This document shows, piece after piece, positions 1 through 61,730 of a stretch of 64,000 bases of DNA. Location of the stretch: contig NW_026924102.1 of assembly GCF_032062105.1 (NCBI RefSeq), positions 124,001-188,000 of the forward strand, in the 5' to 3' direction. Position numbers and translations under genes: made by a program. The notes under the pieces are model-generated. The model saw nothing but the letters and a program-made list of their open reading frames with translations, made no database searches and was not told the origin of the DNA. How positions within the stretch are numbered: the stretch's first letter is position 1; each line of letters begins with the position of its first letter. This DNA comes from Saccostrea cucullata (Eukaryota).

Positions 1-64
1 ACCACAACCATCAAAAATATGAAATATTTTACTGTAATAAAAAAGATTGAGTAAAGTGATTAAC

Positions 65-1472
65 CTTTCAACTAATTCCCCGATTGACACATCGTTCAGG
101 GAATCCCCCAGTTCTTCTGTTTCTCTTCTGCTGACCGTACTTAAAGCAGAGAAAAATAAATATGAATTATACAGGTCATGAATGTCTATGAAGAACAAAT
201 TTAAATACTTAAAAAATACTAACTGAGGTCTCTTCGGCGCATTAGGTGGTACACTGTAAATGAAAGACTATAACGTTAAAATTGAAAATAAGAAGATAAA
301 TGAATAAATACATGTGTATCTTACAAGGAGTATTTCATTAAATAAAATGAAGAGATGAAACTGATGGGATTTCTGTTTATCTATGTCATATATTTCACTG
401 ACCCCAATGAACTAGTATTCTCCAATTCACCATCCCCGTCTCTAAAACGTTTAGAAATAATTGCATGAACAAAATATATAAATATTATATTTAAGGAATG
501 GTAAATAAAACTATTAAAAAAAAATTTTTTAAATACTAACTTTTGTCTTTTGGGTGCATTAGGAGTCGCACTGTAAATGAAAGACTATAACTTTAAAATT
601 ATAAATAAAAAGATCAATGAATAAATAAATGTGTATTTTACAAGTAGTATTAAATTTTATCTCTTTAACTAAATTAAAAATTTTGATAATTAGTACTCAT
701 GGTTTTTTTTAATTTGAAAATGAAAAGATAAATGAATAAATACACGCGTATCGTACAAGGAGTATTAAATTTTATCTATTAATTAATTAAATAAAATGAA
801 GAGTGGAAACTGATGGAATATTTGTTTATCTATGTCATGTATTTCACTGACCCATCTTCTTCACCATCCCCGTTTCTGAAACGTTTAGAAATGAATGTGA
901 ACAAAATATGCTTAAATGTTACATTTAAGGAATGATAAATGAGGAGGGTTAATAAGACTTATTCTACTTACTCTTTACGGGGGGTCCCGATTGGCGTGCT
1001 AATTAATGTGTAGAAAAAAAATGCATAGTAATTAATGGTAAGAAATAGAAAAGAGAAAAAAAAACGAAAGAAAATGAATTCCAGTCTTTTAAAACCAATT
1101 TTCAGTAAAAGATTGAATTAGAGCCAGGCATTACTGACGGTCAATGCAGATGAGGATGATAAATTCATTAATAGATATGATTTTTAAAATTATTATGTTT
1201 CTTAAATACTTGTCAAGCGAAATAAAGTTAAAGAATGAAAATATTTTCTTTTTACCTCGTCCTCTTCCCATAAGACACTTCAAATCTACCAATTAAAAAA
1301 GAAATACAATAGCACAATCACTTACCAAAAATGACATAATTCTCAAGTTTTAAAAATGATGAAAGAGGACTTACGGACAGGGAACATTGTCTACTTTGTC
1401 AATTAGAGCGACCAAGTCCCCGATGATTTCTGTAATTACACCGCAAATACAAACAGGCGTTTTTGATGCCAT
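65..1472 (-). CDS. Uncharacterised multi-microexon gene, 3' end runs off the window. Exons: 1472-1375, 1285-1256, 998-972, 875-852, 570-541, 441-403, 253-224, 139-65
   Basis: All introns are GT..AG (84-281 nt). Internal exons are 30, 27, 24, 30, 39, 30 and 75 nt, all phase 2-2. They join into the stop-free protein MASKTPVCICGVITEIIGDLVALIDKVDNVPCPFEVSYGKRTSTPIGTPRKENGDGEEDGATPNAPKRQKDGDGELENTSSLGVPPNAPKRPHTVSRRETEELGDSLNDVSIGELVE... Confidence 0.8.
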
Positions 1473-1956
1473 GACTGGTAAGATTTCAAGGGAAAGTTTT
1501 CCTCTTTTTATTTGAAAAATGTATCATGTGATATGAGTACCAAATTTGAATAATAAAAACTAAGTCTTATGTACAGTGAATCTAGTGAAAAAGAGAAAAT
1601 GAAAAATTTGTACTGGTCATCCTCCCTGTCAATCAAAGAGGAGCCCAAAAAAGAAGGAAATCCCTGCGTGTGAAATTATACAATTCTGTCAGTCTTAATT
1701 AAAGATGACTCTAAATTAATGAACATACAATAAACAAGACTGAAAAAAAAATGCTAGTCTAGTAACGAAAACATTTTAACAGAGAAATCATCATGTTGTC
1801 ATTTTTACCATTACCATCTGTTCTGAACGGTGATTTATCGTTTTGAAAAATGTGGTCAGACATTTTTATTATGATTAGAAAGTGTTGTAAAGTAAATTTC
1901 CATCAGTGTCATCACTCACTGTGTAATTAAAGATATAAATATGGACAGGGTCATCA

Positions 1957-2289
1957 GTGCACTGGTCAGATTATAGGACATTCCGTTCCCCCAATACCTA
2001 CGGTGACGAGAAGATCAACAGTTCATCCTACTCCCACATTACAACACCCGTCGCTACGGACACTTCAACGAGGGACACGATCCTTAATACCCATGAGAGT
2101 TCAGACAAGGGTATCAGAAATGAGCTTGACTATTTGTTCATAACTATCCTTATACCCTTATTATTTATAATGTGTGTCTGTGTTTTGAAGCTAAAACGTA
2201 GGAAAAAATCTAATCTTGTAAATAATTCAATTGAGATGGAATGTGTTGATGAAGGTGAGACGATATTATACAAAGCCACAGATAAATAA
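1957..2289 (+). CDS. Small single-pass membrane protein (S/T-rich ectodomain, TM helix, basic stop-transfer, acidic tail); true 5' exon/start unresolved
   Basis: TM YLFITILIPLLFIMCVCVL followed by KLKRRKK. The ORF has no early ATG, so it is probably a terminal exon. A possible first exon is near 1793-1829. Confidence 0.6.
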   Translation: MHWSDYRTFRSPNTYGDEKINSSSYSHITTPVATDTSTRDTILNTHESSDKGIRNELDYLFITILIPLLFIMCVCVLKLKRRKKSNLVNNSIEMECVDEGETILYKATDK

Positions 2290-2481
2290 ATGCATGATCA
2301 AAATCAAATTTCCTTTTATCATATCAACTGAAAGTTAAAAAAAAAGAATGTTTAACAGAATCAAGATCCGTGATTTGTATGAATAGTTCTGTACTAATAT
2401 ATATCTTGTTTGCTACTAATATGATTTTTGAACTCATTATTCTTGTTATGATACCTGATTATCAACCAATATCCTTATTGT

Positions 2482-2799
2482 ATGCATGCATTAACACTGA
2501 TGGAGATTAAACTATTAAGTAAGTATTTACTTAATATATTTTCTGAAGTCTGAAATGCAATGAACACTATCGCGATTCATTAAGAATTCACACTCAGATT
2601 GAAATTAAAGTAATATATGTTTTTACATGTAATTAATTTTTTTCAAATTAATAATTACAGTAGACACAGCGTACGGGCTTGGGGTGACAGGAGTGTGCCT
2701 TATCATCATCATCGTGCTGTCCTGGGCAGTGAGACTACTACTTCGTAAGATGGGCATCACATGCAGACTCCCCATGAAGAAAAGTCGTGTAAAAAGGTA

Positions 2800-2867
<68 letters not shown>

Positions 2868-3075
2868 TTGCATTCATGAAATGTTACAATCTTGCACTTG
2901 CGATAACAAGTTAAAAACAAATCAGTACGAAAACATGTTTATAACATACAGGAGACCGGCAGCACGAGACATTGAGCTGAAGGACATAAGAACCGTAAGG
3001 ATAGAAACGGACGAGAGTGAGGATGAAGAGGTGCAGCTGAAAACCCGCTACGACCTGCGCGGAAGAAAAGAGTAA
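2482..3075 (+). CDS. Three-exon single-pass membrane protein of about 98 aa. Exons: 2482-2518, 2661-2796, 2952-3075. A further 3'UTR intron spans 3079-3190
   Basis: GTAAGT/GTAATT donors and CAG acceptors with matching phases (1, then 2). Product MHALTLMEIKLLIDTAYGLGVTGVCLIIIIVLSWAVRLLLRKMGITCRLPMKKSRVKRRPAARDIELKDIRTVRIETDESEDEEVQLKTRYDLRGRKE. AATAAA near 3403. Confidence 0.75.
2803..2863. repeat. (CT)n microsatellite in intron 2 of the TM gene
   Basis: Perfect dinucleotide run. Confidence 0.98.
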
Positions 3076-3213
3076 AGGGTAAGTTCATATGATGAATATC
3101 AGTAAAAGTAGTGTGTACGTAACATTTAGTATTGTATGTTTTGATATTTTTTTGTGTGTGTGTGTATATTTGTTTGTTTTTTCTTCTCAGATGACGAAAG
3201 ATCAGTACGTATC

Positions 3214-3386
3214 CAGGGAGGAACGAAGTCACTAAAGTTACAAAAGTTCCAGGAAGGAATGTGTAAATTCATCTTCATAAAAATTTTGTAAACATTGTTC
3301 AGGGAGGAACGAAGTCATTAAAGACACAAAACAAAATTCCAGAAAGGATTGTGTAAATTCATCCTCATTAAAATTTTGTAAACATT
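3214..3386. repeat. Tandem duplication of about 85 bp in the 3'UTR exon
   Basis: CAGGGAGGAACGAAGTCA...AAATTTTGTAAACATT present twice. Confidence 0.9.
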
Positions 3387-3479
3387 TAATTTCTTTTTAT
3401 TTAATAAAGGTATAATGAATGATAAATTGTTAGAACTACGGGTGATATTTATGGATTATATTCAAAACGATGGATATTA

Positions 3480-4710
3480 CGAGAAACGACAAAATTATGC
3501 CCATGTTTGGACGTTATTTGATTGTTAGGTATCATGTGTATTTTTTTTTTATAAAAATACACAAGTTATCGTAATCAACCATCTAACATCCGAACTTTGG
3601 TATAAAAAAATATGAATGGTCCGCTAATACTCTGCTTACAGACAACATGCATGAATAATTAACCAAAGAGGTTTATAATGATACCAATTCTTTAAAAAAA
3701 ATCACGTTTACAAGCATGTTGAGAGGATGACAAAAGCATACCCATGTTTAGATGTTCAGGTATTCATTGTATAATGACAGAGATATGAACGGTTTTCAAT
3801 TATTGTAATCTAATTGAAAAGGCTTTGCTAAATCAAAGTGAAATGAACCAAATTCACAAGACTGATATGCATTTTAGATTTATAAAAAAAATGCGATAAA
3901 TAATTTATTTTCTGTCATACTTTAAAAACAAGGATTTTTTCAAAAAAAGAGAGTTGTTTGAAATTCAATTAAAAAAAATTCTTACAATAGAAAATTCTTT
4001 TAAGGAAGGATTTTTATTTCATAACATCTTAAAAATTCTACCACGATTAAAAAAAAAATACCTAATCAATAATTTATTAAGTACAAAATATAGTCATACA
4101 TTGAATATCCAAACTTTGATAAGTAAAGTAAAAAGACGGCAACAGTTTACGTGCGAAATAACAAGGAGGATTTAAAATTAATCTATTTACATTTAGAAAA
4201 AGCGTAAAACACGGAGTGAGGATGAAAAAAATAATCCCCCCTGTTTTGAACATTATGTCATTGTTAAAAATACGCCCAGGTTTAGAAGTTATTTGATTGA
4301 TAGGTATCGTGTGTATTTTTTTTAAATTAAATACACAAGTTGTTTTAACCAATCATTTAATACCCAAACTTTGGTATGTATCGTAAAAGGACAGCAACAG
4401 TGTACGCACGAATCAATTACAAGGAGGATTTAAAATTAAATCTCTTTATTTATTTTAGAAAAAGTGTAAACACACGGGTTGAGGATGACAAAATAATTTC
4501 TTCTGTCTGAACATCATGCCATTATTAAAAATGTATATATACACATAAAAAAACTAATTACGAAACATTAAAGTATAAATGGTATTTATTATGTGTGAAA
4601 AAAAAATCTGATGTAAAATACAGAATTCATTAACTTTTCCCATCGAAATTTTCCATGGTTTACTACCTGTATCGTACATGAACGAATTACAATGGGGTAT
4701 TAAAAGTACA
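3480..4710. repeat. Degenerate tandem array, period about 250 bp, 4-5 units
   Basis: Recurring blocks GAGGATGACAAAA (3723, 4218, 4481), CCAAACTTTGGTAT (3590, 4109, 4364) and ACAAGGAGGATTTAAAAT (4161, 4419, 4690). Confidence 0.7.
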
Positions 4711-5467
4711 AAAGGTAATCATTGTATATAAAAGAATCTGCAACATTCTACAAACAATGTCATTATTTTCCCTACGGAAAATTTTCCAGAGTCCCGAAAT
4801 GTTTTTTACGCTTGAGCAGTATCACCCAACAGGAATTTGAGAATTGTTGAAATATCCAAAATAAAATAACTGTATATTACTTTTATTGTATATTATGTTT
4901 TAAGTCCTCTGAGGAGACTGACGTGCGTTACTTAAGGAAAAAAAACATCATGTTTCAGTGTGGTTATTGTGAATTAATGTTTAATGATTATGATAGCATG
5001 GCCGATCACGAAAAGGAACACGAAAGGAATATTAACAATACTGCAAGGTAAGAATGACCATTTGTTTACCTTCTTATGCACAATTCAGAAAGATATCGGA
5101 TAAAGAGAGATAACTCCGCTAACTTCAAATATCTGAGGTGAACTCGGGCATTACCTTGTTAACGCTCCTTGTAAAGTCACAACACAGAGACTTAACGTAA
5201 ATGTGAATAACCAAAATCATAGTATCAAGTAATGAAGTTGTGTTATTTCTATCCATCGATGATGGCTAATATATCATTGCAAATATATAGATGTAAATAA
5301 TTGTTTTTTTTCTTCCAATTTTTTTCTCTCGATGATAAATCTGACATTTAAAGAGAAAAAGAAACAGGGATCTAATTAATAAGGTGAAAAAATCATCAAT
5401 GAGTTTACTGTGTCATGTGTTTTGTTGTCAAACAAGTACTTTAAGATATGTATTTGACCCCCCGATT

Positions 5468-6375
5468 TAAATCAAAACGCACGTATGGTGCTCCATGCGA
5501 GATAATTGTCAATAAAACAGAGAGCGACTTCATGTATGGTGGACCGCTTGTGATAAAAATGATTAAAGTTATGGATCAATTGTATGGCGTCACATAATAG
5601 ATAAAATTCACCCCTATCAAAGTATACCATGTATGGTATTCCGTTTGTGATAAAATTCGATGAAAAATTGAAAAAAAGGTAAAATATATGGTAACCTTTT
5701 TGAGTTAAAAAAAAAATCTTTAAAAAGTTTTTTTTATTTACAACAGTTATTCAACCACCCTAAATCTAAATCAAAACACACGTATGGTGTTCCATGCGAG
5801 ATAATTGTCAATAAATCAGAGAGCGACATCATGTATGGTGGACTGCTTGTGATAAAAATGGTTAAAGTTATGGATCAATTGTATGGCGTCACATAATAGA
5901 TAAAATTCACCCCTATCAAAGTATACCATGTATGGTATCCCGTTTGTGATAAAAGTCGATGAAAAATTGAAAAAAGGTAAAATATATGGTAACCCTTTTG
6001 AGTTAAAAAAATCTTTAAAAAGTTTTTTTATTTACAACAGTTATTCAACCCCCCTCAATCTAAATCAAAACACATGTATGGTGTTCCATGTGAGAAAAAT
6101 GTCATTAAAATATAGAGAGCGACTTCATGTATGGAAAATTTACTCAAATCAAAGTAACCCATATACCGTAACCCGTTTTGTGATAAAAGTTAAAAAAAAT
6201 AAAATATACGGTAACTCATTTGAGATGAAATTGAATTTTAAAAAGTTTTTTTTAAATGTTTGATAGTTTAGCAAAATTTAAAAAAAAAAAAAATGAAAAA
6301 TGAGAAAGTTATTTTATAGGATGATTCGTTTTGAGATAAAGAAAAAAATTAAGAGTGGGAATGTATGGTAACAGA
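5468..6375. repeat. Higher-order repeat upstream of pPolB: units of about 299 bp built from monomers of about 50 bp with GTATGG-N12-GATAA
   Basis: GTATGG/ATATGG at 5483, 5534, 5582, 5631, 5686, 5782, 5833, 5881, 5930, 5984, 6076, 6129, 6363; most are followed 12 nt later by GATAA or GTTAA. Confidence 0.85.
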
Positions 6376-6427
6376 TATCAATGAATGAGCAATGTCTTAA
6401 TGTCTGGTGTTTATTTTAAAATATACA

Positions 6428-9400
6428 ATGAATGATTACAGTTCGGGCGTTTGTGAACAAGAACTGTTTCGAGACATCCAAAACATGGACTGGACACCTG
6501 TTACGGGAGACGACCTATTATACCAGGCGTCCACGTCCAGCGGTGCTCATGCAGAGAGCATGGACTTTAAGGACATTGCCGATTCCTCCTTCCACGGCGA
6601 GGAATCCCTGTTGATGGAAGAAGATGGACTCTTTTCGGAAATCACGGATACCTCTTTTCACGGTGAAGATTCTCTCCTTTGCGACATACCAGTGGATCCG
6701 CTGAGCGATTCATTAGCCGGTCAGTACGGTGCTGGACGAAAAGACGATTTCGATATTCGAATCATACGTGAAAAGAAATTGAAAAAGATGGGAGCCGTGG
6801 ACTTGCAGTACGAGTTGACGTTCCACGACGACCTCTTTCGGGAAAAAAAGAAGATGATCGAAGTCAAAAACGTCTTGAAAGACGCCTTCGAAGAGATGCT
6901 CGATCGAGTCAAGAAGGACCTTCGTCGCGGAGATCTCGTCAGGGCAGCCATCCATAATGATCATTTGGACTTGCCCGTGTTCGTCCCCTGTCGACCCATG
7001 GAGGAGATGGACGCAGAGACCATGCTAGAAAGCCTGATGATCGTCCTTAACAGTCACCAGGACCTGCCTTTCGATTCCTCTTGTCGAATCGATATCGGGG
7101 CCATCAAATATCCACGCGGTGGTACGGGAGTAAAGATGTCTTCCGTCGCTAAATCGATTGCCGAGAAGAGAGCCATTATAAAGATACGCAATACCGATAA
7201 CAAGTGTCTCGTCCGCGCTACTCTCGTCTCTTTGGCCCACAGTTGTCAAATTCACATCACTGAGTTTAACAACGTCAAGGCGCGTCATCCGACCCTCACG
7301 ACCGGGGAAATTCTCATTTTTTACCACCAGTGTCCGCTCTGGTATTGCAGGGATCTGCGAAAAAACCACAAAGGAGCCCAAGACAGCCTGACAAATCAGA
7401 TCTGTGAAACGATGAATATCGTCGATGACGGTCCGTTGTCCTACTTGGCCATCCCTCCTCTAGAAGATTTTCTCAACGTGAACCTCTACATCATCAGTGC
7501 GAAGATGGGGAACGCATTCTCTTACATCAGTGCCCATCACGACGAAGAACGAAAGAAACTATTCCTGCTGCACGACGACACGGAGGGGGCCGAACACTTT
7601 TATCCCATCACGACGCTGGCAGGTTTCTTTTGTCGGTCACGGTTCTGCAGTACGTGTTTAAAACCATACGAAAAACCATACGGACATAAATGCAAACACC
7701 ATTGCAATGTCTGCTTTTCCGATCATTGTCCCGTACTACAAAAGAGAGCTTGTCCAGACTGTCATCAGACCTGTCGCTCTGGGGCTTGTTTCATTCGACA
7801 TAAGAATCCCATGGAAGGAGGGACCACACCTTGCGATCTCCGATACAGATGTCCGACCTGCAAGAAGACTTTCTTACGACACGAGTTAAAACCCGAAGAT
7901 CACCGATGCGGTCATTACATCTGCAAGTCCTGCAGGCAATACGTAGATCCCGAACATCTGTGCTACGCCAGGAGACACCCTTCCAAGGAAAACGAAACCA
8001 GTCGACGATTCATTTTTGCCGACATCGAGGCCTCACAAAAGGACGAAATCGTCCAGTGTGAGTGGGGATACGCACCTCGACGCCTCAACGACTGTACCGA
8101 ATGTCGAACAGAGCAAGACCCGTGCCCCTCCTGTCGACTCTGTCAACACTGTCTCAAATCGCACTGCGGAAAATTTAAACATACCGTGGTCTTGGCAGTG
8201 TGTCAGACCGCCTGTGAAAATTGCGAGAACGACGACGTCACATTCGACAGTACGTGCGCTTCTTGTGGAGACCGATGCTCGACCTGTGACAAGAAGGACA
8301 AGAAAACCAAACAGTACCTTTCGCTTCCCTGTCCTGGTCGATGCGGACAGCGAGAGCGCGTCTTCCAGACCTTGTACGATCTCGGGATATGGATCTTTCG
8401 CGAACATCACAAAGGCTTTACCGTCCTGTTTCATAACCTCTCGTACGATGGCCAGTTTCTTCTGCAGTACTTACTGTCGCAGTCCATTCGTCCTTCCTTT
8501 ATCATTTACAGGGGAAGTAAAATTCAAATGTTCAACATCACCGGCCTTCAAATCCGAGTCATCGATTCGTTTAACTTCCTACCGATGGCCTTATCCAAAC
8601 TCCCCAAAGCCTTCCAGCTGGAATCGCTGGCCAAGGGGTACTTTCCTCACTTTTTTACATGCCAGGCCAACCGGAATTATGTGGGACCTTACCCACCTGC
8701 CGAGACTTATGGTCCCAATGCCATGTCTGTGGATGGTAGAAAAGAGTTCTTCAAATGGTACGACGCTAAAGTCACCAGTGGAGACCTCTTTGATTTTCAA
8801 CAAGAAATCCTCAAGTACTGCCGAAGCGACGTTGACATCCTCCGACGTGCCTGTCTCAAGTTCAAGAACCTCCTGCAGGAAGCAACCGGTAAAGAGGGAG
8901 GCCAAACCGTCGATGCGTTCGATTCCTGTACCATCGCGTCTCTCTGCATGGACGTATTTAAATCCAAGTTTTTAATGGAAGACTGGAGATGCCTGGTCCA
9001 AGAGGACGATGAGGAACGTTGGCTGGAAGTCAGGAAGTTTGACGGAGAGGCGATCGTGAATGACGAGGGTCGTTGGATTCCTTGGAATACTCTGAAGCAA
9101 CGGAACGTCGTCATCGTGAAAGAAGAGTTTGTCAAGTCCCCCATTGCTCGTCCTCCACCCAAGGGATATCCGTCCCGCATCCAGTACAGCCGCAAGTCCA
9201 TCTGCTGGTTAGAGTTACTGAGACATCGCGCTCAAACTTCGGGACGCATTTTGGACATTCAGCATGCACTCACGGGACGTGGAGAATACCATCTGCCCGG
9301 TACCCGATATTCCCTAGACGGATACGTTTCCCCCAGTGCCGAACACCCCCACGGCGTGGCTTACGAGTTCCACGGCTGTCTGTACCACGGCTGTCCCGTC

Positions 9401-10972
9401 TGTTACAAAGATCGAGACGCCCTACTGATCCCGAATTCGGAGCAGACGGCTTCGGAATTGTTTTCACTGACGCAGCACAAGGAACTTCAACTCCGTCAAC
9501 GGGGACTCAAAGTGGTCACCCTCTGGGAACACGAGTTTGACGCCATGTTAAAGACGGACGAGGAGGCCAAAGCGTTCGTCGACCGTTTAGAAGTGGTGGA
9601 CCGTCTCGATCCTCGGGACAGTCTGATGGGTGGGCGTACCAACGGATGCGTGCTCTACAAGCGAGCCACCAAGGACACGAAAATCAAATACGTGGACTTT
9701 ACCTCCCTGTACCCCTTTGTCAACAAGACGTGCCGTTACCCCGTCGGACACCCAGAGATCGTCACCCGGGATTTCGCCGACCTTTCGACCTATTTCGGAT
9801 TAGTCAAAGTCAAAGTCCTACCGCCCCGCGGTCTCTTTCATCCGGTCTTGGGTTACCGTACGGGAGGAAAATTGACCTTTCCTCTCTGTCGAACCTGCGT
9901 CGAACGGCAGCAACAGACCCCCTGTGTCTGCAACGAGGACCAAAGGGCTTTCACGGGAACGTATTGCACGCCAGAACTCTCAAAAGCCATCGAAAAAGGG
10001 TACGCGGTCTTGAAAATCTACGAGGTGTACCACTGGACGGAAACGACTCAGTACGACACGGCCACGAAGACCGGAGGCCTCTTTTCCTCCTACATCAACA
10101 TGTTTCTGAAAATAAAACAAGAGGCCAGTGGGCGACCGGCGTGGGTCAAGACCGAGTCGGATCTCGAAAGTTACATCAGGATGTACGAGGCCAAGGAAGG
10201 CATTCGCCTAGACCCCGACAAAATCCAAGTCAATGCGGGTCTAAGGAGTTTAGCCAAACTGTTATTGAATAGTTTTTGGGGGAAATTTGGTCAGCGCACG
10301 AATCTGACCAAGACCCAATTCCTTCACGACAGTCAGGCCCACTTCCTCTTCGGTCAAATGACCGATCCCACCGTACAGATTGTCGACTTTAACATCGTGG
10401 ATGACGAAAACCTCATGCTGTCCACCAAACGCGTTTCGGAAGAGATGTGTGCTCCGGGTCACACCAACGTGTTCCTGGCCTCTTTTACCACCTGCTGGGC
10501 CCGGCTCAAACTGTACGACTTACTAGATCAATTACAGACTCGGGTCCTTTATTGGGATACGGATTCCGTCATCTACGTGTCCAAGGCAGGGGAGTGGGAA
10601 CCTCCCACCGGAGACTACCTCGGAGAGCTCACCGACGAACTGGACGAAGGAGATTGGATCACGGAATTTGTCTGTAACGGTCCAAAAAACTACGCGTACC
10701 GGACGCATCAGGGAAAGCAGGTGTGCAAAGTGAAAGGCTTTTCTCTCAACTACGCCAACTCACAGATTCTCAACCTGGAAAGTATGAGAGACGCTATGTT
10801 TAATCGCGACGATCCGACGATGGGCATGTATCACACCACCAACGCCAAAAAGATCTGCCGGGAAAAGATTCATTCTGAGCTCTACAGTCAAGAAGAACTC
10901 AAACAATATTCGGCTGTCTACACTAAGAGAGTCGTGCAGAGTGACCTGACCACCCTTCCTTACGGATATTAA
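6428..10972 (+). CDS. Protein-primed family B DNA polymerase (pPolB) with N-terminal OTU-like domain, Zn-fingers, 3'-5' exonuclease and inserted VSR-like nuclease
   Basis: Motifs: DNKCLVRA...HFYPI (OTU-like); FADIE, HNLSYDG, YCRSDV (Exo I-III); LDGY...YEFHGCLYHGC (VSR-like); VDFTSLYP, KLLLNSFWGKFGQ, YWDTDS (Pol A-C). First ATG at 6428. Confidence 0.97.
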   Translation: MNDYSSGVCEQELFRDIQNMDWTPVTGDDLLYQASTSSGAHAESMDFKDIADSSFHGEESLLMEEDGLFSEITDTSFHGEDSLLCDIPVDPLSDSLAGQYGAGRKDDFDIRIIREKKLKKMGAVDLQYELTFHDDLFREKKKMIEVKNVLKDAFEEMLDRVKKDLRRGDLVRAAIHNDHLDLPVFVPCRPMEEMDAETMLESLMIVLNSHQDLPFDSSCRIDIGAIKYPRGGTGVKMSSVAKSIAEKRAIIKIRNTDNKCLVRATLVSLAHSCQIHITEFNNVKARHPTLTTGEILIFYHQCPLWYCRDLRKNHKGAQDSLTNQICETMNIVDDGPLSYLAIPPLEDFLNVNLYIISAKMGNAFSYISAHHDEERKKLFLLHDDTEGAEHFYPITTLAGFFCRSRFCSTCLKPYEKPYGHKCKHHCNVCFSDHCPVLQKRACPDCHQTCRSGACFIRHKNPMEGGTTPCDLRYRCPTCKKTFLRHELKPEDHRCGHYICKSCRQYVDPEHLCYARRHPSKENETSRRFIFADIEASQKDEIVQCEWGYAPRRLNDCTECRTEQDPCPSCRLCQHCLKSHCGKFKHTVVLAVCQTACENCENDDVTFDSTCASCGDRCSTCDKKDKKTKQYLSLPCPGRCGQRERVFQTLYDLGIWIFREHHKGFTVLFHNLSYDGQFLLQYLLSQSIRPSFIIYRGSKIQMFNITGLQIRVIDSFNFLPMALSKLPKAFQLESLAKGYFPHFFTCQANRNYVGPYPPAETYGPNAMSVDGRKEFFKWYDAKVTSGDLFDFQQEILKYCRSDVDILRRACLKFKNLLQEATGKEGGQTVDAFDSCTIASLCMDVFKSKFLMEDWRCLVQEDDEERWLEVRKFDGEAIVNDEGRWIPWNTLKQRNVVIVKEEFVKSPIARPPPKGYPSRIQYSRKSICWLELLRHRAQTSGRILDIQHALTGRGEYHLPGTRYSLDGYVSPSAEHPHGVAYEFHGCLYHGCPVCYKDRDALLIPNSEQTASELFSLTQHKELQLRQRGLKVVTLWEHEFDAMLKTDEEAKAFVDRLEVVDRLDPRDSLMGGRTNGCVLYKRATKDTKIKYVDFTSLYPFVNKTCRYPVGHPEIVTRDFADLSTYFGLVKVKVLPPRGLFHPVLGYRTGGKLTFPLCRTCVERQQQTPCVCNEDQRAFTGTYCTPELSKAIEKGYAVLKIYEVYHWTETTQYDTATKTGGLFSSYINMFLKIKQEASGRPAWVKTESDLESYIRMYEAKEGIRLDPDKIQVNAGLRSLAKLLLNSFWGKFGQRTNLTKTQFLHDSQAHFLFGQMTDPTVQIVDFNIVDDENLMLSTKRVSEEMCAPGHTNVFLASFTTCWARLKLYDLLDQLQTRVLYWDTDSVIYVSKAGEWEPPTGDYLGELTDELDEGDWITEFVCNGPKNYAYRTHQGKQVCKVKGFSLNYANSQILNLESMRDAMFNRDDPTMGMYHTTNAKKICREKIHSELYSQEELKQYSAVYTKRVVQSDLTTLPYGY

Positions 10973-11004
10973 CAACAAGACATTTTTTTTGTATGAAATC
11001 ATTT

Positions 11005-11064
11005 TTTATTGGCTCATGGTACATGTTTTTGTAATTCTTGTACAGAAATATAAATGTCAATAAA
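11005..11064. terminator. Convergent polyadenylation signals for pPolB (+) and the minus-strand structural block
   Basis: AATAAA at 11059-11064 on + and at 11010-11005 on -. Confidence 0.6.
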
Positions 11065-11196
11065 AGTTCCAAAAATCTCGAGTCTTTCTTCTTCTTTGTG
11101 AGAGTTGTGCATATGCTCAGAAGGTACTTCCGGTCGTATTCACTCGGACGGTCTGTTGCCTGAAAGATGATCACGTATGTTTTCGTATAAAATGTT

Positions 11197-11445
11197 TCAA
11201 AACTTGATCCAAGTCTTGTTCTTCTTTGGGAGAGTCGTGCGCATGCCCGGTGGGGACTTCCTCTTCACGGATCCGTCGTAAATCAGTCCCGAACCCCTCT
11301 GGCGATCCGTCACCGAGGGTTCGATCTGAGGGTCGGAAGGAGTCTCGGTGTTCGTTTCTTGGTCTCGTACCTCTTGACGATCATTCTGACTTTGTTTCAT
11401 CCGATCGAAGGTCGTCTTTTTCACGAGAACGTATTCCTCTGCCAT
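11197..11445 (-). CDS. Small Polinton ORF (82 aa), positionally PZ-like; contains a QRGSG motif
   Basis: ATG in good context, overlaps the upstream ORF, N-terminus MAEEYVLVKK and C-terminus WIKF resemble PZ-type termini as recalled. Confidence 0.6.
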   Translation of the reverse strand: MAEEYVLVKKTTFDRMKQSQNDRQEVRDQETNTETPSDPQIEPSVTDRQRGSGLIYDGSVKRKSPPGMRTTLPKKNKTWIKF

Positions 11446-11740
11446 CTTTGAAATGAGGTTTCAGAATCAGGGGTATGGCCTCTGCGTGTTTCCTCAATAA
11501 TTTCTTGATGGCGGTGTTGTCCACTGCTCGGTCACTGAGAGACTGAAGTAATGTTTTATGAACCTTGAGTTTTGTCTTGTAATAACCGGACACGGGGGGA
11601 TGTCCCGAGTACAGATTGAGAGCGATTTCTCGAAAAGCATTCAACTGCTCGTCCGACGCCAGGTTGACCAGTTCTTTCCTCTGTACGGGATCCGCTTCGT
11701 ACAGGAAACGGAGAAAAGTTGCGTGACGTCTAGGTCTCAT
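11381..11740 (-). CDS. Conserved Polinton PW-like (putative core) protein, 119 aa
   Basis: Pattern L..L...QRKELV..A...QL.AF.E.ALN.Y.G..P......L..HK..L..L. Start MRPRR at 11740 is preceded by a TATA-like element and Inr. Confidence 0.75.
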   Translation of the reverse strand: MRPRRHATFLRFLYEADPVQRKELVNLASDEQLNAFREIALNLYSGHPPVSGYYKTKLKVHKTLLQSLSDRAVDNTAIKKLLRKHAEAIPLILKPHFKDGRGIRSREKDDLRSDETKSE

Positions 11741-11778
11741 GACGAACAATGACGTCTCGAATGGGTCGGCGGTCGTAT

Positions 11779-12417
11779 TTATTGGGGCAGGTACACGACC
11801 GTTTCCCCTTCTTCCGGTAAGACGTTCGTGCGCAGGCGTCGATCTTCGGGACAGTGATTGGTCAGATCCACCAGAATGTATCCGTAAGGACGGCGGACGG
11901 CCTTGGCGTAGGCGTCCATCCAAAATTTAGAACGACCCGTAAACACCTGACTTCCGAAGGTGATGATCTGGCGATTGTCTCTCACGTTCTTGAATAGAAC
12001 CACGTGTTGACAGTTCAACAGGATGCTCTTGGCGTAGACTCCGGGCGGGTAGAGGTTCTGAGACAAGAGAAATGCCGTCACGTTGCCGTGAGACACCATG
12101 GTCTGAAACAGGTGCAGGGCATCGGGGCTCTTGGTCGCCAGGTGAATCATGTCGTCCAAGACCACTACCGTGTGTGGCGAGTCCAGACACCAATCTCGGA
12201 TCTCTTCTCGGGTAGGCAATCCTCGGTAGGTGGTGAAATCGGGGAGAGTCGCTTGCATGTCGTCCACCACGGGTTGGTCTTCCAGATAACAGTACACGAT
12301 CTTACTAGGAGAGACTTCGAACGTGTCGGGACTTTTCAACAGGTTCCACACCCAGTGCGTCTTGCCGCACATGGTTCCCCCCACGACGGCAAACGAGGTC
12401 GGAGTCTTAAATTTCAT
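11779..12417 (-). CDS. A32/FtsK-like genome packaging ATPase
   Basis: Walker A GGTMCGKT, Walker B VVVLDD, LSQNLY and PYGYILVD motifs. Confidence 0.95.
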   Translation of the reverse strand: MKFKTPTSFAVVGGTMCGKTHWVWNLLKSPDTFEVSPSKIVYCYLEDQPVVDDMQATLPDFTTYRGLPTREEIRDWCLDSPHTVVVLDDMIHLATKSPDALHLFQTMVSHGNVTAFLLSQNLYPPGVYAKSILLNCQHVVLFKNVRDNRQIITFGSQVFTGRSKFWMDAYAKAVRRPYGYILVDLTNHCPEDRRLRTNVLPEEGETVVYLPQ

Positions 12418-12550
12418 CGTGACGTTCTCTTGGTAAAGGCTGTCAGAGACTAACGTCTCTCTAGAGAAAACACCTCGTTAAATAATCACAACACCTTTTT
12501 TTTGCGTGCACTTTTTTTATTAGACACGAAAATCAATGACATGAACCACA

Positions 12551-12610
12551 TTTTCCCGGGCCGCCGCCGCGCGCGCGAACCCGAGGGATCCGGAAACTGG
12601 TTTCCGGAAA
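12551..12610. promoter_or_regulatory. GC-rich upstream element of the ATPase gene with palindrome TCCGGAAAC-TG-GTTTCCGGA
   Basis: GC island in an AT-rich spacer; inverted repeat at 12589-12608 with ETS-like CCGGAA cores; E2F-like TTCGCGC on the minus strand. Confidence 0.5.
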
Positions 12611-12736
12611 TCTTTGATGATGGACAATGCGAATACCAATCCATAAAATAAAAGATACAATGTGCATTCTTAGGATCATACATACATACAGAATAAACAT
12701 TTTTTTTTATATTTAAGAGTCTTCAAGCATATAATG

Positions 12737-13183
12737 TCAAAGAAGGCGATCTCCCTTTAAAATAACGTCACGTACGAGGGACTCTGACGTCGTACGAATC
12801 ACATCGGCCATGGATAGTCCTTTCACTCGACAATACAGGTAAAATAAGGCATGAAGTCCGCAACTGGTGGCAGCATCCGGCTGTACTTGTACGTTGTTGT
12901 AGAGGCAGAACAAGGCGTTGCGATCGATAAAGTCTCTCAGACGACCGTCGTACTCTCCCGGCAATCTTCCGAAACTGTCGAAAAATTCGCATTGGTCGGC
13001 ACTGGCGAACCAGTAAGCGACCCAGTGCGTCCCCTTCTTGTCGATGGGATCCGTGTTGCAGACGAAGGCCGAGGGAAACTGTCGAACTCGCCCGGGTAGC
13101 GTATCGGAAGCAAACACCCCCCGAAAATGAAGTTTCAACCCCGGCAACGTCTCTACTCGTTGAAGTAACTGTAACGTGTCCAT
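12737..13183 (-). CDS. Adenain-like (C5) cysteine maturation protease
   Basis: GVFASD, NTD, GTHWVA (His), EFFDSFG (Asp), VQ...SCG (Gln/Cys). Confidence 0.95.
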   Translation of the reverse strand: MDTLQLLQRVETLPGLKLHFRGVFASDTLPGRVRQFPSAFVCNTDPIDKKGTHWVAYWFASADQCEFFDSFGRLPGEYDGRLRDFIDRNALFCLYNNVQVQPDAATSCGLHALFYLYCRVKGLSMADVIRTTSESLVRDVILKGDRLL

Positions 13184-13185
13184 GT

Positions 13186-14499
13186 TTACATCTGTCGGAT
13201 CTCTCGAGCTTGGTCGACGAGGAGCAGTCCTGGATATTCGCAGAAGGCCAGTGCGCTCACGGTCTCCGTGGTGGGCGAGGCAAATCGAGCGTATACTCCG
13301 ACGTTTGCCTGATGTACCAGGTTTATATACCCCTCACCCAGGTCGTTGGGGTCGAGGTCAAAGGCGTAAATGGCGTAGCCTTTAGAAAACTGGTCGCGGT
13401 CGATGATCAGGCCGTCGTCCTTGTACCATTTTTCGGAAGCTTGATACAGGTTGCAGAGCGCCGTGACGTAATTTCGATCGTCGCCAAAGTCCATCTTCAT
13501 GGGACGGACGGGGGTGGGTTCTCCGTTGACGGTCACGACGATTTCGGACAGATTCAGGTGTTGAAAGTTGTAAGGATTGCCTTCGTAGCTTCCGTTCACG
13601 GCCGACTGTTTCACAAAGACCACGTACATCTTGGAAGGTCTTCTTCCGTTCCACACGTCGTCCCAGTAGACTTCACTGGTCTTGTCCGAGATGGTCATCA
13701 TCTTGACGTCGGTCTTGAGATAATTGTAACGGGCCGGCGATTTGGTGATGGCGTTGGCATGGTTCAACAGGACGGCACTGTCTAATCGGATCTTGCACGC
13801 CTTGAAGACGGCATCGAGGATGGTGACTTTGTAACTGGGCGAAGCCTCCGCGCTCATCAGCACAAACTCGTTCCTCGAACGAAAGAGTCTCAGCTGTAAG
13901 TCGACCCCGTTGATCAGGTACTTGTCCAGGTAGAAACAGTCGACGTACAGGGGACCTTCCAGATCGAAAGTTCTGGACATTTGCGTGAACACGTACCGTC
14001 CTCGGAGTCCCTGGTTGCGTCCTGTGGCGGCATCTGCGTCATCCAAGACTTCCTTGTCGGGGTAATACAGCTGAGACTGTAGTTGCGAGTTGCTGGCGGC
14101 GGGTGAGTTGGATAAGAGGACTTTGAGGTAGGCTTTCCAAGGATAATTGTTGGCGTTCTGCGAGACGCATTTTCCGTTCATGTAGACGTCGATCTGCGAA
14201 AACAAAGACTGCAACGGCAAGTTGACGATACCCGTCTTTTCGGAGGCCGCCAGTGCCGTGCCGTCCGCTTTAGTGATCTTGGCTTTCAAGTAGAGTCGGC
14301 TCCTTCTCAAGTCGATGTATTCGTTTCCCCCTCCCGGAATGGCAAATTCGAGAGGAGCGGTGTCTCCGTCAAAGGAGGAGACGGGTCGAATCTCCGAAAA
14401 ATAAATCTTTTGAACAGCCACCTGATTGGGAGGATCGCTAAAGAGAGCCAGTTCGGAGGGTTCTGCCACGGACGTGTTGATCTCGCTCAAAAATGCCAT
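13186..14499 (-). CDS. Double jelly-roll major capsid protein (PY/hexon-like)
   Basis: 437 aa; SELALF.DPP.Q, PLEF.IPG...[28 protein letters not shown] motifs typical of Polinton MCP. Confidence 0.93.
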
Positions 14500-14501
14500 G
14501 A

Positions 14502-14957
14502 TTAAAAGATGGTTTTCTTTGGAAGACGGGATTTTCTCTGCGTGGTTTTTGTGGTTTTGGGTTTCCTTTTCTTTAGGCTTCTGGCTCGTTTACGGACTTT
14601 CGTCTTCTGGCTCCGGACACGTCCTTTCCCTTTGGAGGTCGATGTGCGACTGACAGATTTCTTCTTCTTTTTTCTTTTTATAGTTCTCTTCAGAGGTATG
14701 TGAGGCTCGTCGTTACGCATGGTTTCTTTCAGATCGGACAGGGCTCGCTCTTGCTCGGCGGCTACGGGTGTCACCAGCTGTACGTTCTGTTGGGGAATGC
14801 GAGATTTCAAGGGAAGCATGTAAGCTCTTCTGCGGTTTAGGATCCCACCTCCTCTCTGGCTGTTGCGTCGTAGGGTAGGAATGAAATTTTCGCCATCTTC
14901 CGTGTGGCGAAATTGTTCCCATAAGGCCGGATTCGAAATGTAAGTGGGTCCAGACAT
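14502..14957 (-). CDS. Basic core/DNA-condensing protein (adenovirus pVII/pX-like by analogy)
   Basis: QRGGG motif, [11 protein letters not shown] motif, K/R-rich C-terminal half, located between penton and MCP. Confidence 0.75.
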
Positions 14958-14963
14958 GTTGGA

Positions 14964-15371
14964 TCAGAGACGCCGAAACACGAGTGTCAACGTCGACTCT
15001 CCGACCAAGAATGAAACGTCGCCGTCGTTTTTGTCTCTTATATACACGTGAACGTCCCGCAGGTCATTGATGCGTAACGGTATGCGATAGGGTTGCAGAA
15101 AGATGACGTTGCGGTCGCTTTCCAGCACGATGCGCCTCAGGAGGGGTTTCTGATGTTCCCCGACGATGCTATCGTCACAGACGGAACAGTAGACGAAGAT
15201 TTCCTTGTCGGACGTCGGTTTGACGTTCGAGTTCCAAAATTCGGTCAGTTCCACCGTCCAATCCCCCGTCAAGGGTAAAGGACGGGGTAACCGCACTCTA
15301 AAGTCGTCAGGTCGATTGTTGTGGTGGACGGAGGGACTGTCCGTAGACTTGAGAACCATTCGCATCGACAT
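14964..15371 (-). CDS. Minor capsid protein/penton (PX), short single jelly-roll
   Basis: L.S.DS...H.NN.P.DF.V.LP.PL.L.G.W.V.L.E, FVYCSVC..SIVG....PLLR, I.I.D..G..V.F..G. Confidence 0.88.
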   Translation of the reverse strand: MSMRMVLKSTDSPSVHHNNRPDDFRVRLPRPLPLTGDWTVELTEFWNSNVKPTSDKEIFVYCSVCDDSIVGEHQKPLLRRIVLESDRNVIFLQPYRIPLRINDLRDVHVYIRDKNDGDVSFLVGESTLTLVFRRL

Positions 15372-15401
15372 CTTCTCTAGTACTGATGAATTGAGTCGGC
15401 A

Positions 15402-16526
15402 TCACGTCTCTTTTATGTCGGACTGAGGAATCCAGCTGTCGAATTTTTTGGGCCAGCCCAGCCATCTGACCAGAACCTCTTCTTTCCCGCGAACTTTGCG
15501 TTTCCGCAAGATCTTGTCTATTCGCCAGACGGTCTCATCGTCTTTCGACACTTTCTGAAGTTCGCTGGCGTAAAACGTTCCTCGAATTGGGTCGTCCATC
15601 ATGTCCTTCAATTTGTAGATGGGTATGTCTTGAGACACGAAACGATCACTCACGATGAAGATTTCTTCCGTGTACGTCTGGTCGTAATCGCGTTGAAACG
15701 CCCGTTTCAGATGCGTGATTCGAACTTGATCACCCTTTTTAAATCTGAAGGGTTTGCGTTTTTTCAGAGATTTCTTCCCTCGGGGTATGCGTGCGTCTTT
15801 CTGTCGACGTGCTAAATAAGCATCTAATCGCACTTCTTCTTCGTTCTCTTGGGTCACGGAAGACGGCGTCCGTCCGTTCAGCGAGCGATTGGGCGTATCG
15901 TTGATGGAATGCACCACGTCTTGAAGAATGTTTAGGTACTTGTATTTCTGAAGGTGGGTGAAGTAACGATACAGTCTCTTCTTTAAAGTCTGTATGTATC
16001 GCTCCGCAAAATTGGCTTTGGTCTCGTTCAGGGCGTAAAATATCTTGATGTTCTGCTCTCTCAGGTATTTTTGAAGGTATCGATTGTAAAATTCCGAGCC
16101 CTTGTCGGTGCGGATGGCTCTGGGTCGTCTAGGGCCACTCAGTACGTCTTTGAACGCATCGATGACGGACTTGGATTTCCGGTCTTTCAAGGGTCGAACC
16201 CACAGAAAACGAGAAAACACGTCCACGATCACCAGCAGAAATTTGATGCCGTCGTTGTACTCGGACAAGTTCTGAACATCGGCCAGATCGGCTTCCCATT
16301 GATAGTCGATCCCTTGAACCACGACTCGTCTCCGCTTGAAACCACGTCGCCTCAGTTTCTTTTGCAACGAGTAAGCATCTTGGTTTTGTAAGAATTTTTT
16401 GATTTTTCTCAAACCAATATTATATTTGCCTTCTCGTTTCACCACATCATATAACTTGGAAGGTCCGGCAAACGATCCGGCATGCCGAGGATCGTACCAG
16501 ATTTTTTTCAGGTACTCTTCCATCAT
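15402..16526 (-). CDS. Retroviral-like DDE integrase (rve) with C-terminal chromodomain
   Basis: EADLAD, RTDKGSEF, AERYI triad; WRIDKIL...LVRWLGWPKKFDSWIP chromodomain. The ORF track start at 16553 is TTG; the first ATG is 16526. Confidence 0.96.
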   Translation of the reverse strand: MMEEYLKKIWYDPRHAGSFAGPSKLYDVVKREGKYNIGLRKIKKFLQNQDAYSLQKKLRRRGFKRRRVVVQGIDYQWEADLADVQNLSEYNDGIKFLLVIVDVFSRFLWVRPLKDRKSKSVIDAFKDVLSGPRRPRAIRTDKGSEFYNRYLQKYLREQNIKIFYALNETKANFAERYIQTLKKRLYRYFTHLQKYKYLNILQDVVHSINDTPNRSLNGRTPSSVTQENEEEVRLDAYLARRQKDARIPRGKKSLKKRKPFRFKKGDQVRITHLKRAFQRDYDQTYTEEIFIVSDRFVSQDIPIYKLKDMMDDPIRGTFYASELQKVSKDDETVWRIDKILRKRKVRGKEEVLVRWLGWPKKFDSWIPQSDIKET

Positions 16527-16840
16527 CCGATCACTAGCACTGTTCGAATGCAAATGACTTGAACCCGTTTCACACCTCCATTTTTATATTTATAAAAAGA
16601 CCTCTCCTAGTCATAAAAAAATAAACAACACACATTTCAACAAACCAAATTTTATTCATCAGATCAAATACAAACAATAGTCTCCTCTCACTACTTCGGT
16701 CGACCTTGTCCATACGGATCGGAGCACCTGACGTGTCCTAGATCGGTCGGTTCGGATTCTCGAAGGAGACGTGGGTGAATGGTCTCATGATTTTTTTTTG
16801 GTCTTTGAAAAAAAAGCCACAGTTCATAGTTTTCGTTCAC

Positions 16841-17308
16841 TCATCGTACTTTTCCATCGGTCACCATGTTAGCGAAGACACAATTCTCGGACCAGCGGAG
16901 ATGTTCTCTGTAGGCATCGTCGAAGGGTTCCCAATTCTTCAGAGTCCAGCCACAGGAGAAGCAAGTGACTTTGTCTCCGATCTCGGTGTAAATGAACCCA
17001 GATCGTGCTAGATCCGTCTTGTTGGGACCTTTGAGAAACTTGGGCCATTCTTTAAAGCTGGCATAGCGTTCGGCAAAGTTGACGTATTCCGGGTACTTCC
17101 AAGATTTTCGTACGACAGGCGGAGGAATGTTCTCGACTGGCAGTCGTACAAACTCGTTTGATGTCCCCCGTACCCCCGACGACTTGTAAGGGCTGACCAG
17201 AACGAATCGGGTGTCGGGGTCTCTCTTTCGAGCAGTGGTTTGGGTCAAGAGGTTGGGTGCACTGTCCGTCTCCACGACATTAGGCATGCAATCCAACGTC
17301 GAAGTCAT
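16841..17308 (-). CDS. Single-BIR inhibitor-of-apoptosis-like protein (no RING)
   Basis: R.ASF..WP, LARSGF.Y...GDKVTCFSC...L..W...DD...EH..W...C. Confidence 0.93.
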
Positions 17309-17390
17309 GTTATCGTGACGATGTGTTCACTAGTAATGAAAGCCGAGAATGAGAGACGAGACATTAAAGGGTCTTGATCACGTGCTTGAC

Positions 17391-17422
17391 GGGAAAAACC
17401 TGTGACGTCATAGGTTTTTCCC
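17391..17422. promoter_or_regulatory. 32-bp palindrome: Rel/Dorsal-like kB site, CRE, kB site
   Basis: GGGAAAAACC-TG-TGACGTCA-TA-GGTTTTTCCC, one mismatch from perfect dyad, in the divergent promoter between BIR and the 17728 ORF. Confidence 0.7.
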
Positions 17423-17727
17423 CGATGTGATGGACCATGAAGGTACTCGGGAGAATTTCATTGTGACACAAAGGGGGGAAAGAACAATGGGAGTATTATC
17501 TCTATTGTTTGAGCAAGGGGGTAACAACAATGACGGATCATCACGGATGAGTCCCTTCGTGACCCTTAGACGACCTTTCCCACGATTCAATGGGAGTCAA
17601 ACACAATGACTCTATTCTTGGAACAATAAAGGGGACGCTGTGACTGCGCATAACGTCCTAGGTGGCAATGTTAAAAAGCAGAGGTTTCCATCAGAAAGAT
17701 CATACCTCCTCTAGCATACGGACCAGA

Positions 17728-18183
17728 ATGATTTCCAACAAGAAATATCAACTCGAAATGATAGATGATTCAGGCTTTCATCTATTCATGAAAAAGGGTG
17801 CAGCTGTCAAACAACTGATTGACCACCATATTGCCAACGACATGAGTACAGAATCCTGTGATTTCTGTAAAAAACAGCACGTTCTCAGAAGTAAGCTCGT
17901 CCATGAGAAACACTGTCTTGTCCGATTAGCTTTGGAAGCGCAATCGGACGTTACAAAAATGACCACATTCTGTTTGCGAGCACAGGATATCCAAGACGAA
18001 TCGCACGGAAAGAACCTGGTGTTTTTCTGGGATATCATGATGGTCACTATGGCCGACCGTATTCCCTTCGAGGACATGAGAGCTGCTTATTACGAATCCC
18101 TTTTTGAAAGTTACGACCGCGGAGAAATGGAATTCCTGTGGCCAGACGGAGTCTGGCGTAAAGAAGACCCATGTTACACTTAA
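17728..18183 (+). CDS. Hypothetical protein with CxxC...H...C putative Zn-binding motif
   Basis: Clean ORF with CDFCKKQH...HEKHC; TATA-like TTAAAAAG upstream; AATAAA at 18249. Confidence 0.65.
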   Translation: MISNKKYQLEMIDDSGFHLFMKKGAAVKQLIDHHIANDMSTESCDFCKKQHVLRSKLVHEKHCLVRLALEAQSDVTKMTTFCLRAQDIQDESHGKNLVFFWDIMMVTMADRIPFEDMRAAYYESLFESYDRGEMEFLWPDGVWRKEDPCYT

Positions 18184-18343
18184 CTTTTAATCAATGAAAA
18201 AGAACAGTTTTTCATGAAACCATGTTTTTATTCTGGTTACATGTCAACAATAAATTTTTTAACCTCTTATTTTTCGTTGTCTTTTTTTTAAACATTAGAT
18301 TCAACACAACATGGATTAAAAAAAAAAACAAAACTTTTGCTCA

Positions 18344-18856: not shown

Positions 18857-19224
18857 TGTCTCTATGGGAGATCAGACGACTGTGAACGATTCGATTGGAA
18901 ACAGACCTTTTAATCAAAAACTTAACTCTCTTGTTTACCACGTGACCAAATAACAACACACTGATTTGAAATACAATAGACTTTTATTTACGGAATAATG
19001 ACAAGATTTAAACATATACGAGAATACGGTGACAAGATTCAAACATATATAAAAAAAATACGGTATCATGACAAGATTCATATTGGAAAAATGTCAAACT
19101 CGTTCATAGTCTTTCTTCTCACAGCGAGGTTCATTGTTTCACCGAAAATCAAAGGTTCTCATGTCCACGTCTTTCGTTTTCCCACCGTTTTTTGACTTGT
19201 TCACCATTTTCCCGTCTTCCGATT

Positions 19225-19734: not shown

Positions 19735-19859
19735 GTTGTCGCTATCACGTTTGTTTCTCAAATGACGAAAAAGTACAACCCATCTTCTATATAAACGTCT
19801 CCCCAATGACACGTCATAGAAAACCCAAGACATCCCACGTGGTCTGTTCAGGTCACTAC

Positions 19860-20214
19860 TCCATTGTTGTCACTCACGGTAATGTCTCCTTTAGGTCAAC
19901 AAGAGGTCATCCATGACCTTACCCCATTGTTCTCTGACACCGTCATGTCTCCTCCGGGTCACGGTGAAGTCGTCCATAACCTAGCTTCCTTGTTCTTCCC
20001 CCCTCGCCTTACAATAGAGGGGGATAATCCGGATCATCCTCCCATTGTCCTCCCCCTTGTTCTCCCCAACAATAAATCCCCTTGTTTACCCCCTCCATTG
20101 TCCCCCCTTACAATAGAGGGGGGATAATCCGGATCATCCTCCCATTGTTCTCCCCATTGTTCTCCCTAACAATAGACCCATTGTTTACCCCCCCTATATG
20201 TCGGTTATACTACT
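19860..20214. repeat. Right terminal inverted repeat region with subterminal duplications of about 63 bp and 99 bp; candidate 6-bp TSD GAGGAG at 20215-20220
   Basis: CCTTACAATAGAGGGGGATAATCCGGATCATCCTCCCATTG twice; multiple CCATTGT; terminal ACTACT. Confidence 0.8.

Positions 20215-61008: not shown

Positions 61009-61044
<36 letters not shown>

Positions 61045-61691: not shown

Positions 61692-61730
<39 letters not shown>

Follow-up and report, generated by a model that had tools for sequence, protein, structure and literature searches.

Tandem duplication of a two-microexon unit in a predicted orphan gene, probably Polinton cargo, of the oyster Saccostrea cucullata

Near the start of the window (the whole 64,000-nucleotide stretch of Saccostrea cucullata DNA analyzed here), a unit of two microexons and their introns has been duplicated in tandem on the minus strand. 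The unit belongs to a predicted spliced gene, likely a coding orphan, which runs from position 1472 to beyond position 1. This gene sits upstream of the polymerase gene (from 6401) of a Polinton/Maverick element, at a distance of about 5 kb. The explanation that we tentatively prefer is a duplication within a left-arm gene of the Polinton, the product of which would be a mostly disordered adaptor with one or two P-x-x-P-x-R docking motifs. Duplicated symmetric disordered exons with short motifs (PMC3632108), micro-exon genes (PMC4350168), and spliced Maverick cargo (bioRxiv 2022.07.12.499685) are already described in the available text of these sources. The combination of a microexon gene and a Polinton looks undescribed, as no paper pairing the terms "microexon" and "Polinton" was found in the literature searched (subscription journals and Repbase aside).

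The duplicated unit and its gene model

The duplicated unit is approximately 430-450 bp long and consists of an intron part, an acidic-linker exon, an intron, and an exon encoding PNAPKR. It occurs twice on the minus strand. Copy 1 (506..940, approximate limits) extends from the 3' part of intron 3 to the start of intron 5 and includes exons 4 and 5 with intron 4 between them; copy 2 (193..506, approximate limits) runs correspondingly from the 3' part of intron 5 through exon 6, intron 6, and exon 7 to the start of intron 7. When the two units were aligned globally, the score was 303.5, compared to a mean of 14.3 (sd 11.9, maximum 60) for 200 shuffles, and intron strings are shared at 376-389/825-838, 392-402/841-851, and 254-274/571-591. 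The claim of a sequence-only reading of this DNA that exon pairs 4/5 and 6/7 were duplicated together with their introns was thus confirmed.

Of the five intron segments compared, four paralogous ones are 89, 89, 90, and 92% identical. Because the fifth segment, the 5' end of intron 3 versus that of intron 5, is only 63% identical, we placed the duplication breakpoint inside intron 3. Between the units, exons 4 and 6 are 88% identical (over aligned columns) and exons 5 and 7 are 67% identical, the latter pair being more diverged than its flanking introns (p 0.001, with small numbers). Copy 1 additionally holds an internal repeat with a spacing of ~115 bp.

The gene model comprises eight exons with 117 codons and no stop; all seven introns are GT-AG and in phase 2, and exons 2-8 are each divisible by 3. 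Predicted exon 1 (1472-1375) starts at the first ATG, with an acceptor at 1474 that permits an unseen upstream exon. It is followed by exon 2 (1285-1256; 30 nt, phase 2-2), which gives the T-S of a TSTP motif, exon 3 (998-972; 27 nt), in which TPIGT and TPRK overlap (T44-P-x-x-T48-P-R-K), exon 4 (875-852; 24 nt), the acidic linker of module 1, and exon 5 (570-541; 30 nt) with the first PNAPKR. Exon 6 (441-403; 39 nt) is the acidic linker of module 2, exon 7 (253-224; 30 nt) carries the second PNAPKR, and exon 8 (139-65; 75 nt) is acidic. As the predicted gene extends past position 1, its C-terminus lies beyond the window. Exons 3 to 7, with their AG and GT flanks, agree with those of the sequence-only reading; exon 2 lies outside the interval of that reading (224..998).

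Six of the eight visible exons are 2-2 symmetric microexons of 24-39 nt, which together provide 180 of the 353 coding nucleotides, and the introns measure 84-281 nt. The GC content is ~0.47 in the exons versus 0.23 in the introns. A blind list of strong acceptor-donor pairs (n = 15) included all six modeled exons from 2 to 7 (GC 0.43-0.63), while no ORF of 100 codons marks the gene. Since every intron is in phase 2, the doubling, loss, or skipping of any exon should leave the reading frame intact, and all 64 skip combinations in the model stay open. Intron 7 (140-223, minus strand; 84 nt) is itself open in frame, so its retention would not halt translation.

Two described systems share this architecture in part. 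Human tandem-duplicated symmetric disordered exons (PMC3632108) have in common with the oyster gene phase symmetry, disorder, internal duplication, and a combination of SH3-ligand and phosphorylation motifs; however, phase 2 is the rarest class in that source (21%), whereas the oyster gene is entirely in phase 2 and probably belongs to a mobile, virus-like element. Schistosome micro-exon genes (MEGs, PMC4350168) likewise place most of their coding sequence in very small symmetric exons, so that in-frame skipping is possible, a likeness of architecture only. MEGs are restricted to flatworms, have long introns and documented alternative splicing, and are found in secretions or glands, unlike the bivalve gene with its introns of 84-281 nt, predicted splicing, and a likely intracellular product.

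Variation among copies in sequencing runs

Other copies of the region were compared using four sequencing runs (X1, DNA; X3; X9 and X12, both RNA) aligned to window positions 1-2790. Parts of 1-3400 are contained in 11 of the 23 listed runs (best share 0.16); the conclusions use only the four aligned and set aside the small shares in the other runs, one of them labeled an oyster metagenome. Copy variation was read from the 40 of 353 differences and 12 of 88 indels that were listed, among them 20 of the 24 differences of the X1 contig spanning exons 7-8. In these two exons, the listed differences between X1 and the window comprise 10 silent and 6 non-silent changes over ~25 and ~77 sites, respectively (pN/pS 0.19, binomial p 0.0014), and four of the six non-silent changes lie near a 9-nt in-frame insertion in exon 8. 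Exon 7 shows four silent changes and one in the junction codon; at the protein level the PNAPKR core is identical in exon 5, exon 7, and X1 despite the silent changes. Exon 6 of X1 is 6 nt shorter (net) and exon 4 reads 12 nt longer, so that all three exon length changes seen in X1 (+9, -6, and +12) preserve the frame. Because the differences in exons 7-8 fall mostly at silent sites, the microexon gene is likely coding.

Exon copy number, which the sequence-only reading had proposed to compare, varies among the copies. One X1 contig jumps over 515-702 (joint 514-703, short side 130 letters), removing exon 5, and in another the exon 4 acceptor is lost, as aligned, to a deletion of 11 nt at 871. 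The X1 pieces covering the gene have an even depth of 37-40. The X1 copy therefore keeps remnants of module 1 but would yield a protein with a single PNAPKR. One X3 contig also skips exon 5 (joint 515-611), with a weak anchor whose short side is only 23 letters, and the end of a different X3 contig coincides with the exon 5 acceptor, as expected for a copy bearing exon 5. Module number is thus variable, and at least one lineage can do without the second motif.

A formerly coding cargo gene, by now silent or decaying and with a duplication that drifts without function, would also account for X1 having lost exon 5 and the exon 4 acceptor. Spliced RNA is lacking as well: none of the eight joints listed across the four runs is a spliced junction, and the X9 contigs read through the introns. 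Furthermore, X1, X3, and X9 have extra sequence at 1975-1978 that is missing from the window, within the neighboring membrane-protein gene. However, X12, a raw run from one tissue in which 9 reads aligned of 12.8 million records, is a weak test for an element gene. The eight exons in the window are stop-free with intact splice sites, and the silent-site bias and the in-frame indels also speak against decay, which we consider quite unlikely.

Silent sites of X1 diverge at 10 of ~25 positions versus a background of 6.3% (p 1e-6, small numbers). The exons (65-253 and 541-570), silent sites included, outdiverge the introns whether the duplicated units or the copies are compared, in alignments that favor well-aligning introns. 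CpG decay was considered as a cause of the silent-site excess and rejected, as it accounts for only one of the ten changes. Three of the five X1 differences in exon 7 match the letter of exon 5, and exchange between the paralogues may contribute to the divergence of the exons. A bolder reading, in our view improbable, would have a Polinton micro-exon gene encode a motif-display protein with a valency tuned by doubling, losing, or skipping phase-2 exons. Its exons, silent sites included, would evolve several times faster than its introns under host-defense pressure (e.g. from piRNAs) on the mature RNA or protein, and the gene would be a counterpart of early host-subverting genes, built by splicing.

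Position relative to the Polinton

A Polinton/Maverick gene set occupies 6401-19869, where 9 of the 15 frames scanned had a Pfam match at E≤0.01. The protein-primed DNA polymerase B (6401..10972, plus strand) is a 1523-codon open frame (PF03175, E 8.6e-49). The core module (11779..16583, minus strand) encodes an A32-like ATPase, an adenain-like protease (PF00770, E 6.1e-06), a double-jelly-roll capsid protein, and an integrase with a chromo domain (PF00665, E 1.1e-10); the matches of the ATPase (PF04665, E 0.0089) and the capsid protein (PF21738, E 0.0016) are weak, below cut-off, but are located in the expected module. The right end of the element (20193..20214, minus strand) ends in ACTACT (20209-20214), the end motif (AGTAGT/ACTACT) also described for vertebrate Mavericks (PMC8097293). 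Polintons are bounded by terminal inverted repeats with AGTAGT ends and a 6-bp target duplication. No partner repeat of the right end was found within the 64-kb window at ≤3 mismatches, and queries with the capsid or polymerase found no related long loci.

Just inside the right end lies a 100-bp subterminal tandem repeat (20007-20192). The right arm (16841-19869) encodes a BIR (IAP-like) protein and a two-domain PC4-like protein, and the frame at 18344-18871 looks macro-domain-like by eye, with no Pfam match. The window as a whole is animal DNA with satellites and intron-rich genes.

The microexon gene is probably located inside the Polinton, as cargo of its left arm, as its position upstream of the polymerase suggests; the element's left end would then lie outside the window. 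No left end is seen between the gene and the polymerase, though the core frames are open, and positions 1-6400 match none of the host DNA to the right of the element. The resulting element of 20-plus kb fits the Polinton size range of 13-25 kb (PMC10748475), and nematode Mavericks carry spliced cargo near their left repeat (bioRxiv 2022.07.12.499685). The GC content of the gene arm (0.30) counts against membership, being host-like, versus 0.50 in the core, as does the unseen left repeat.

An ordinary, fast-evolving host gene could also flank a Polinton with a deleted left end, the microexon duplication then being a routine tandem duplication of exons in a disordered protein. The host-like GC content and the window without a visible left terminal repeat agree with such a gene, as do the adjoining membrane-protein exon, 62% identical to an annotated Crassostrea virginica relative, and the report that intact vertebrate Mavericks are intronless (PMC8097293, in its available text). 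We nevertheless regard a host gene as rather unlikely: the open core frames are what a young element with both of its ends would show, neither exon 1 nor exons 7-8 match an annotated host protein, poly(A) RNA reads are almost absent, and nematode Mavericks hold intron-containing cargo in a 2-5 kb zone beside the left repeat (bioRxiv 2022.07.12.499685).

What a Polinton left-arm gene would share with this nematode cargo (wasp/msft-1, krma) is splicing and placement in a variable region, a few kb long, that separates the left end from an intronless core. In contrast, the nematode cargo described in the available text encodes folded proteases and kinases in a GC-rich zone, whereas the oyster gene is AT-rich, with exons of 24-39 nt and a mostly disordered product, and its location in the element is our inference. 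Should the gene lie inside the element, a class of Polinton accessory genes escapes ORF-based annotation. The gene would then also bear on the reported absence of introns from intact vertebrate Mavericks and on the manipulation of host cells by Polintons.

Two more predicted spliced genes adjoin the microexon gene. On the plus strand, 1939-2289 is the last exon of a Ser/Thr-rich single-pass membrane protein, with 62% identity over 101 residues to a WSC4-like protein of Crassostrea virginica. A second predicted spliced gene (plus strand; 2482-2518, 2661-2796, and 2952-3074) is in frame over 98 residues and would encode a product with one hydrophobic segment and a tail that is first basic and then acidic; a further 3'-untranslated intron is likely at ~3078-3190. 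The AT-rich arm (1-6400) contains local tandem duplications at 3214-3386, 3491-3603/4266-4377, and 4099-4532, as well as a 299-bp array (5468-6153) directly before the polymerase. Compared to the rest of the window, 1-6400 showed no match at E≤1e-3 and no shared repeat.

Motifs and features of the predicted protein

The stretch encoded by the symmetric microexons appears mostly disordered, as had been proposed, with 12% order-promoting residues at positions 36-103. Exon 1 is predicted to form an amphipathic helix (AlphaFold, single sequence; residues 6-28, mean pLDDT 77), the hydrophobic moment of which was equaled in 1.5% of 5,000 shuffles. A pattern for PKA-anchoring helices fits exon 1 but also 8% of shuffles, and this candidate was dropped. 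In X1 and X9 no alignment to exon 1 remains, and one X3 contig has other sequence in its place; the helix may thus not be conserved.

Homologue searches used short or intron-holding genomic queries rather than the spliced protein, and their negatives are accordingly weak. Neither exon 1 nor exon 8 had a Pfam match at E≤10. Exon 1, a short query, gave no match at E≤0.001 among 1.84 billion representatives, and with seven upstream codons added, still short, no match among longer proteins. No homologue was found for exons 7-8 read through intron 7, a query that includes the intron, nor in the Atlas for queries made of genomic stretches, and the PDB gave a single chance match (E 0.75). DNA patterns for the PNAPKR exon had no hits in viral contigs or metagenomes.

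The sequence-only reading had assigned one motif to each exon and likened the product to a cell-cycle-targeting hub of the E1A type. The first proposal did not hold, as one and the same motif is found in exons 5 and 7, none is found in exons 4 and 6, and the cell-cycle motifs overlap: TSTP straddles the exon 2/3 junction, and TSTP, TPIGT, and TPRK share a single stretch of ten residues. All three are present as patterns, but in one overlapping cluster rather than as separate motifs of separate exons. Judged from the sequence, the cluster is best read as a single primed phospho-switch. The first T of TSTP (T42) is A in X1, X3, and X9, and motif conservation across copies rests on a few close copies with exon 3 excluded.

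Using general patterns for the CDK, S-T-P, degron-like, and basic-core motifs, we estimated their frequencies in 20,000 shuffles of exons 2-7. Single motifs appeared often (CDK site 0.17, S-T-P 0.08, two degron-like sites 0.06, basic core 0.07). All four classes, which were picked post hoc and share TP dipeptides, occurred together in 0.0016 of the shuffles. The composite T-P-x-x-T-P-x-K, also a general pattern chosen post hoc, was found in 0.002 of shuffles. T44-P-x-x-T48 fits, as a pattern only, the layout of an Fbw7 degron (pT-P with a phosphosite or glutamate at +4). The degrons of Myc and Jun have pT-P with S/T at +4 (PMC1802738); the hydrophobic -1/-2 residues of the Cdc4 consensus given in the available text of the same source are absent here, where -2/-1 are T and S.

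Under a loose NLS pattern, K[KR]x[KR], only exon 5 fits. Neither copy of PNAPKR fits the ELM monopartite core 2 or bipartite pattern as printed in PMC3632108, contrary to its earlier description as NLS-like. Both copies instead fit LIG_SH3_2 (class II SH3 ligand, P-x-x-P-x-[KR]; residues 63 and 86), again as a pattern only; by chance this motif arises in 6.6% of shuffles of the one-copy linker. LIG_SH3_2 is 3.8-fold enriched in short symmetric disordered exons according to PMC3632108.

These patterns bear on the proposed hub, which in the manner of E1A and the adintovirus Oncoids would engage CDK/cyclin, Plk1, Fbw7, and importin through one motif per exon to push the host into S phase. The comparison keeps some appeal: Oncoid genes are typically upstream of the polymerase (PMC8502044), as is the oyster gene, and like the Oncoids and E1A it would encode a small motif-based protein with acidic, CK2-like sites (here at residues 96, 106, and 111). 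The joint occurrence of four motif classes in so few shuffles and the BIR and PC4-like proteins of the element also point this way. However, the hallmarks LxCxE, CR1, and paired CxxC (patterns per the available text of PMC8502044) are absent from the 117 visible residues, and there is no sequence match; the Oncoids are described as open reading frames, with splicing unmentioned in that text, while the oyster gene is predicted to be spliced. The overlap of the motifs across an exon junction, the failure of both ELM NLS patterns, and the X1 copy without module 1 argue further against such a hub. The visible protein also has no match to an RxL pattern. We find the hub very unlikely.

Alternatively, exons 7-8 could be a degenerate HMG box, with PNAPKR as a basic DNA- or chromatin-binding arm captured from an HMGB-like gene. 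HMGB1 presumably has a phase-2 intron at the codon matching the PNAPKR exon. The seven residues PNAPKRP are identical to the start of HMGB1 box B, in its N-terminal arm (PMC4261565), and an HMGB1 peptide beginning 30 residues further on opens with SIGD (PMC4261565, in its available text), compared to SIGE 25 residues past PNAPKRP in our model. Beyond the arm, no HMG fold signal follows in the oyster gene. Of 29 translated segments, 18 passed an HMG-like filter, 13 of them distinct; a profile built from these 13, with the rest dropped, matched only 8-9 residues around PNAPKR, and a score this high was reached by 39.6% of 2,000 shuffled versions of the downstream residues. The downstream residues hold no aromatic, and the read-through frame of exons 7-8 had no HMG match in Pfam or PDB. 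The three helices with an aromatic core expected after a PKRP arm are absent from the visible part, although helices 2-3 could lie past the window. We therefore consider an HMG origin highly improbable.

Returning to the disordered adaptor, we infer its partners and its phospho-switch from the patterns above. The exon 1 helix would bind one host partner, and PNAPKR, held out by the acidic spacers, would bind another, with an SH3-domain protein as a likelier candidate than an importin. Phosphorylation of T48 by a CDK might prime T44 and thereby create a Myc-type Fbw7 degron, which would tie the lifetime of the protein to the cell cycle. The duplication would only give the protein two motifs instead of one and would be dispensable. 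The protein would then act as a kinase substrate with docking sites, and not as a hub with a distinct cell-cycle motif in each exon.

As a motif control, similar TP/SP patterns were found in two host ORFs of the window, 57943-58710 and 63295-63999. The surrounding region (57940-63999, minus strand) consists of large acidic, SP/TP-rich host frames, probably the exons of a gene for a nuclear protein with a cell-cycle or checkpoint role.
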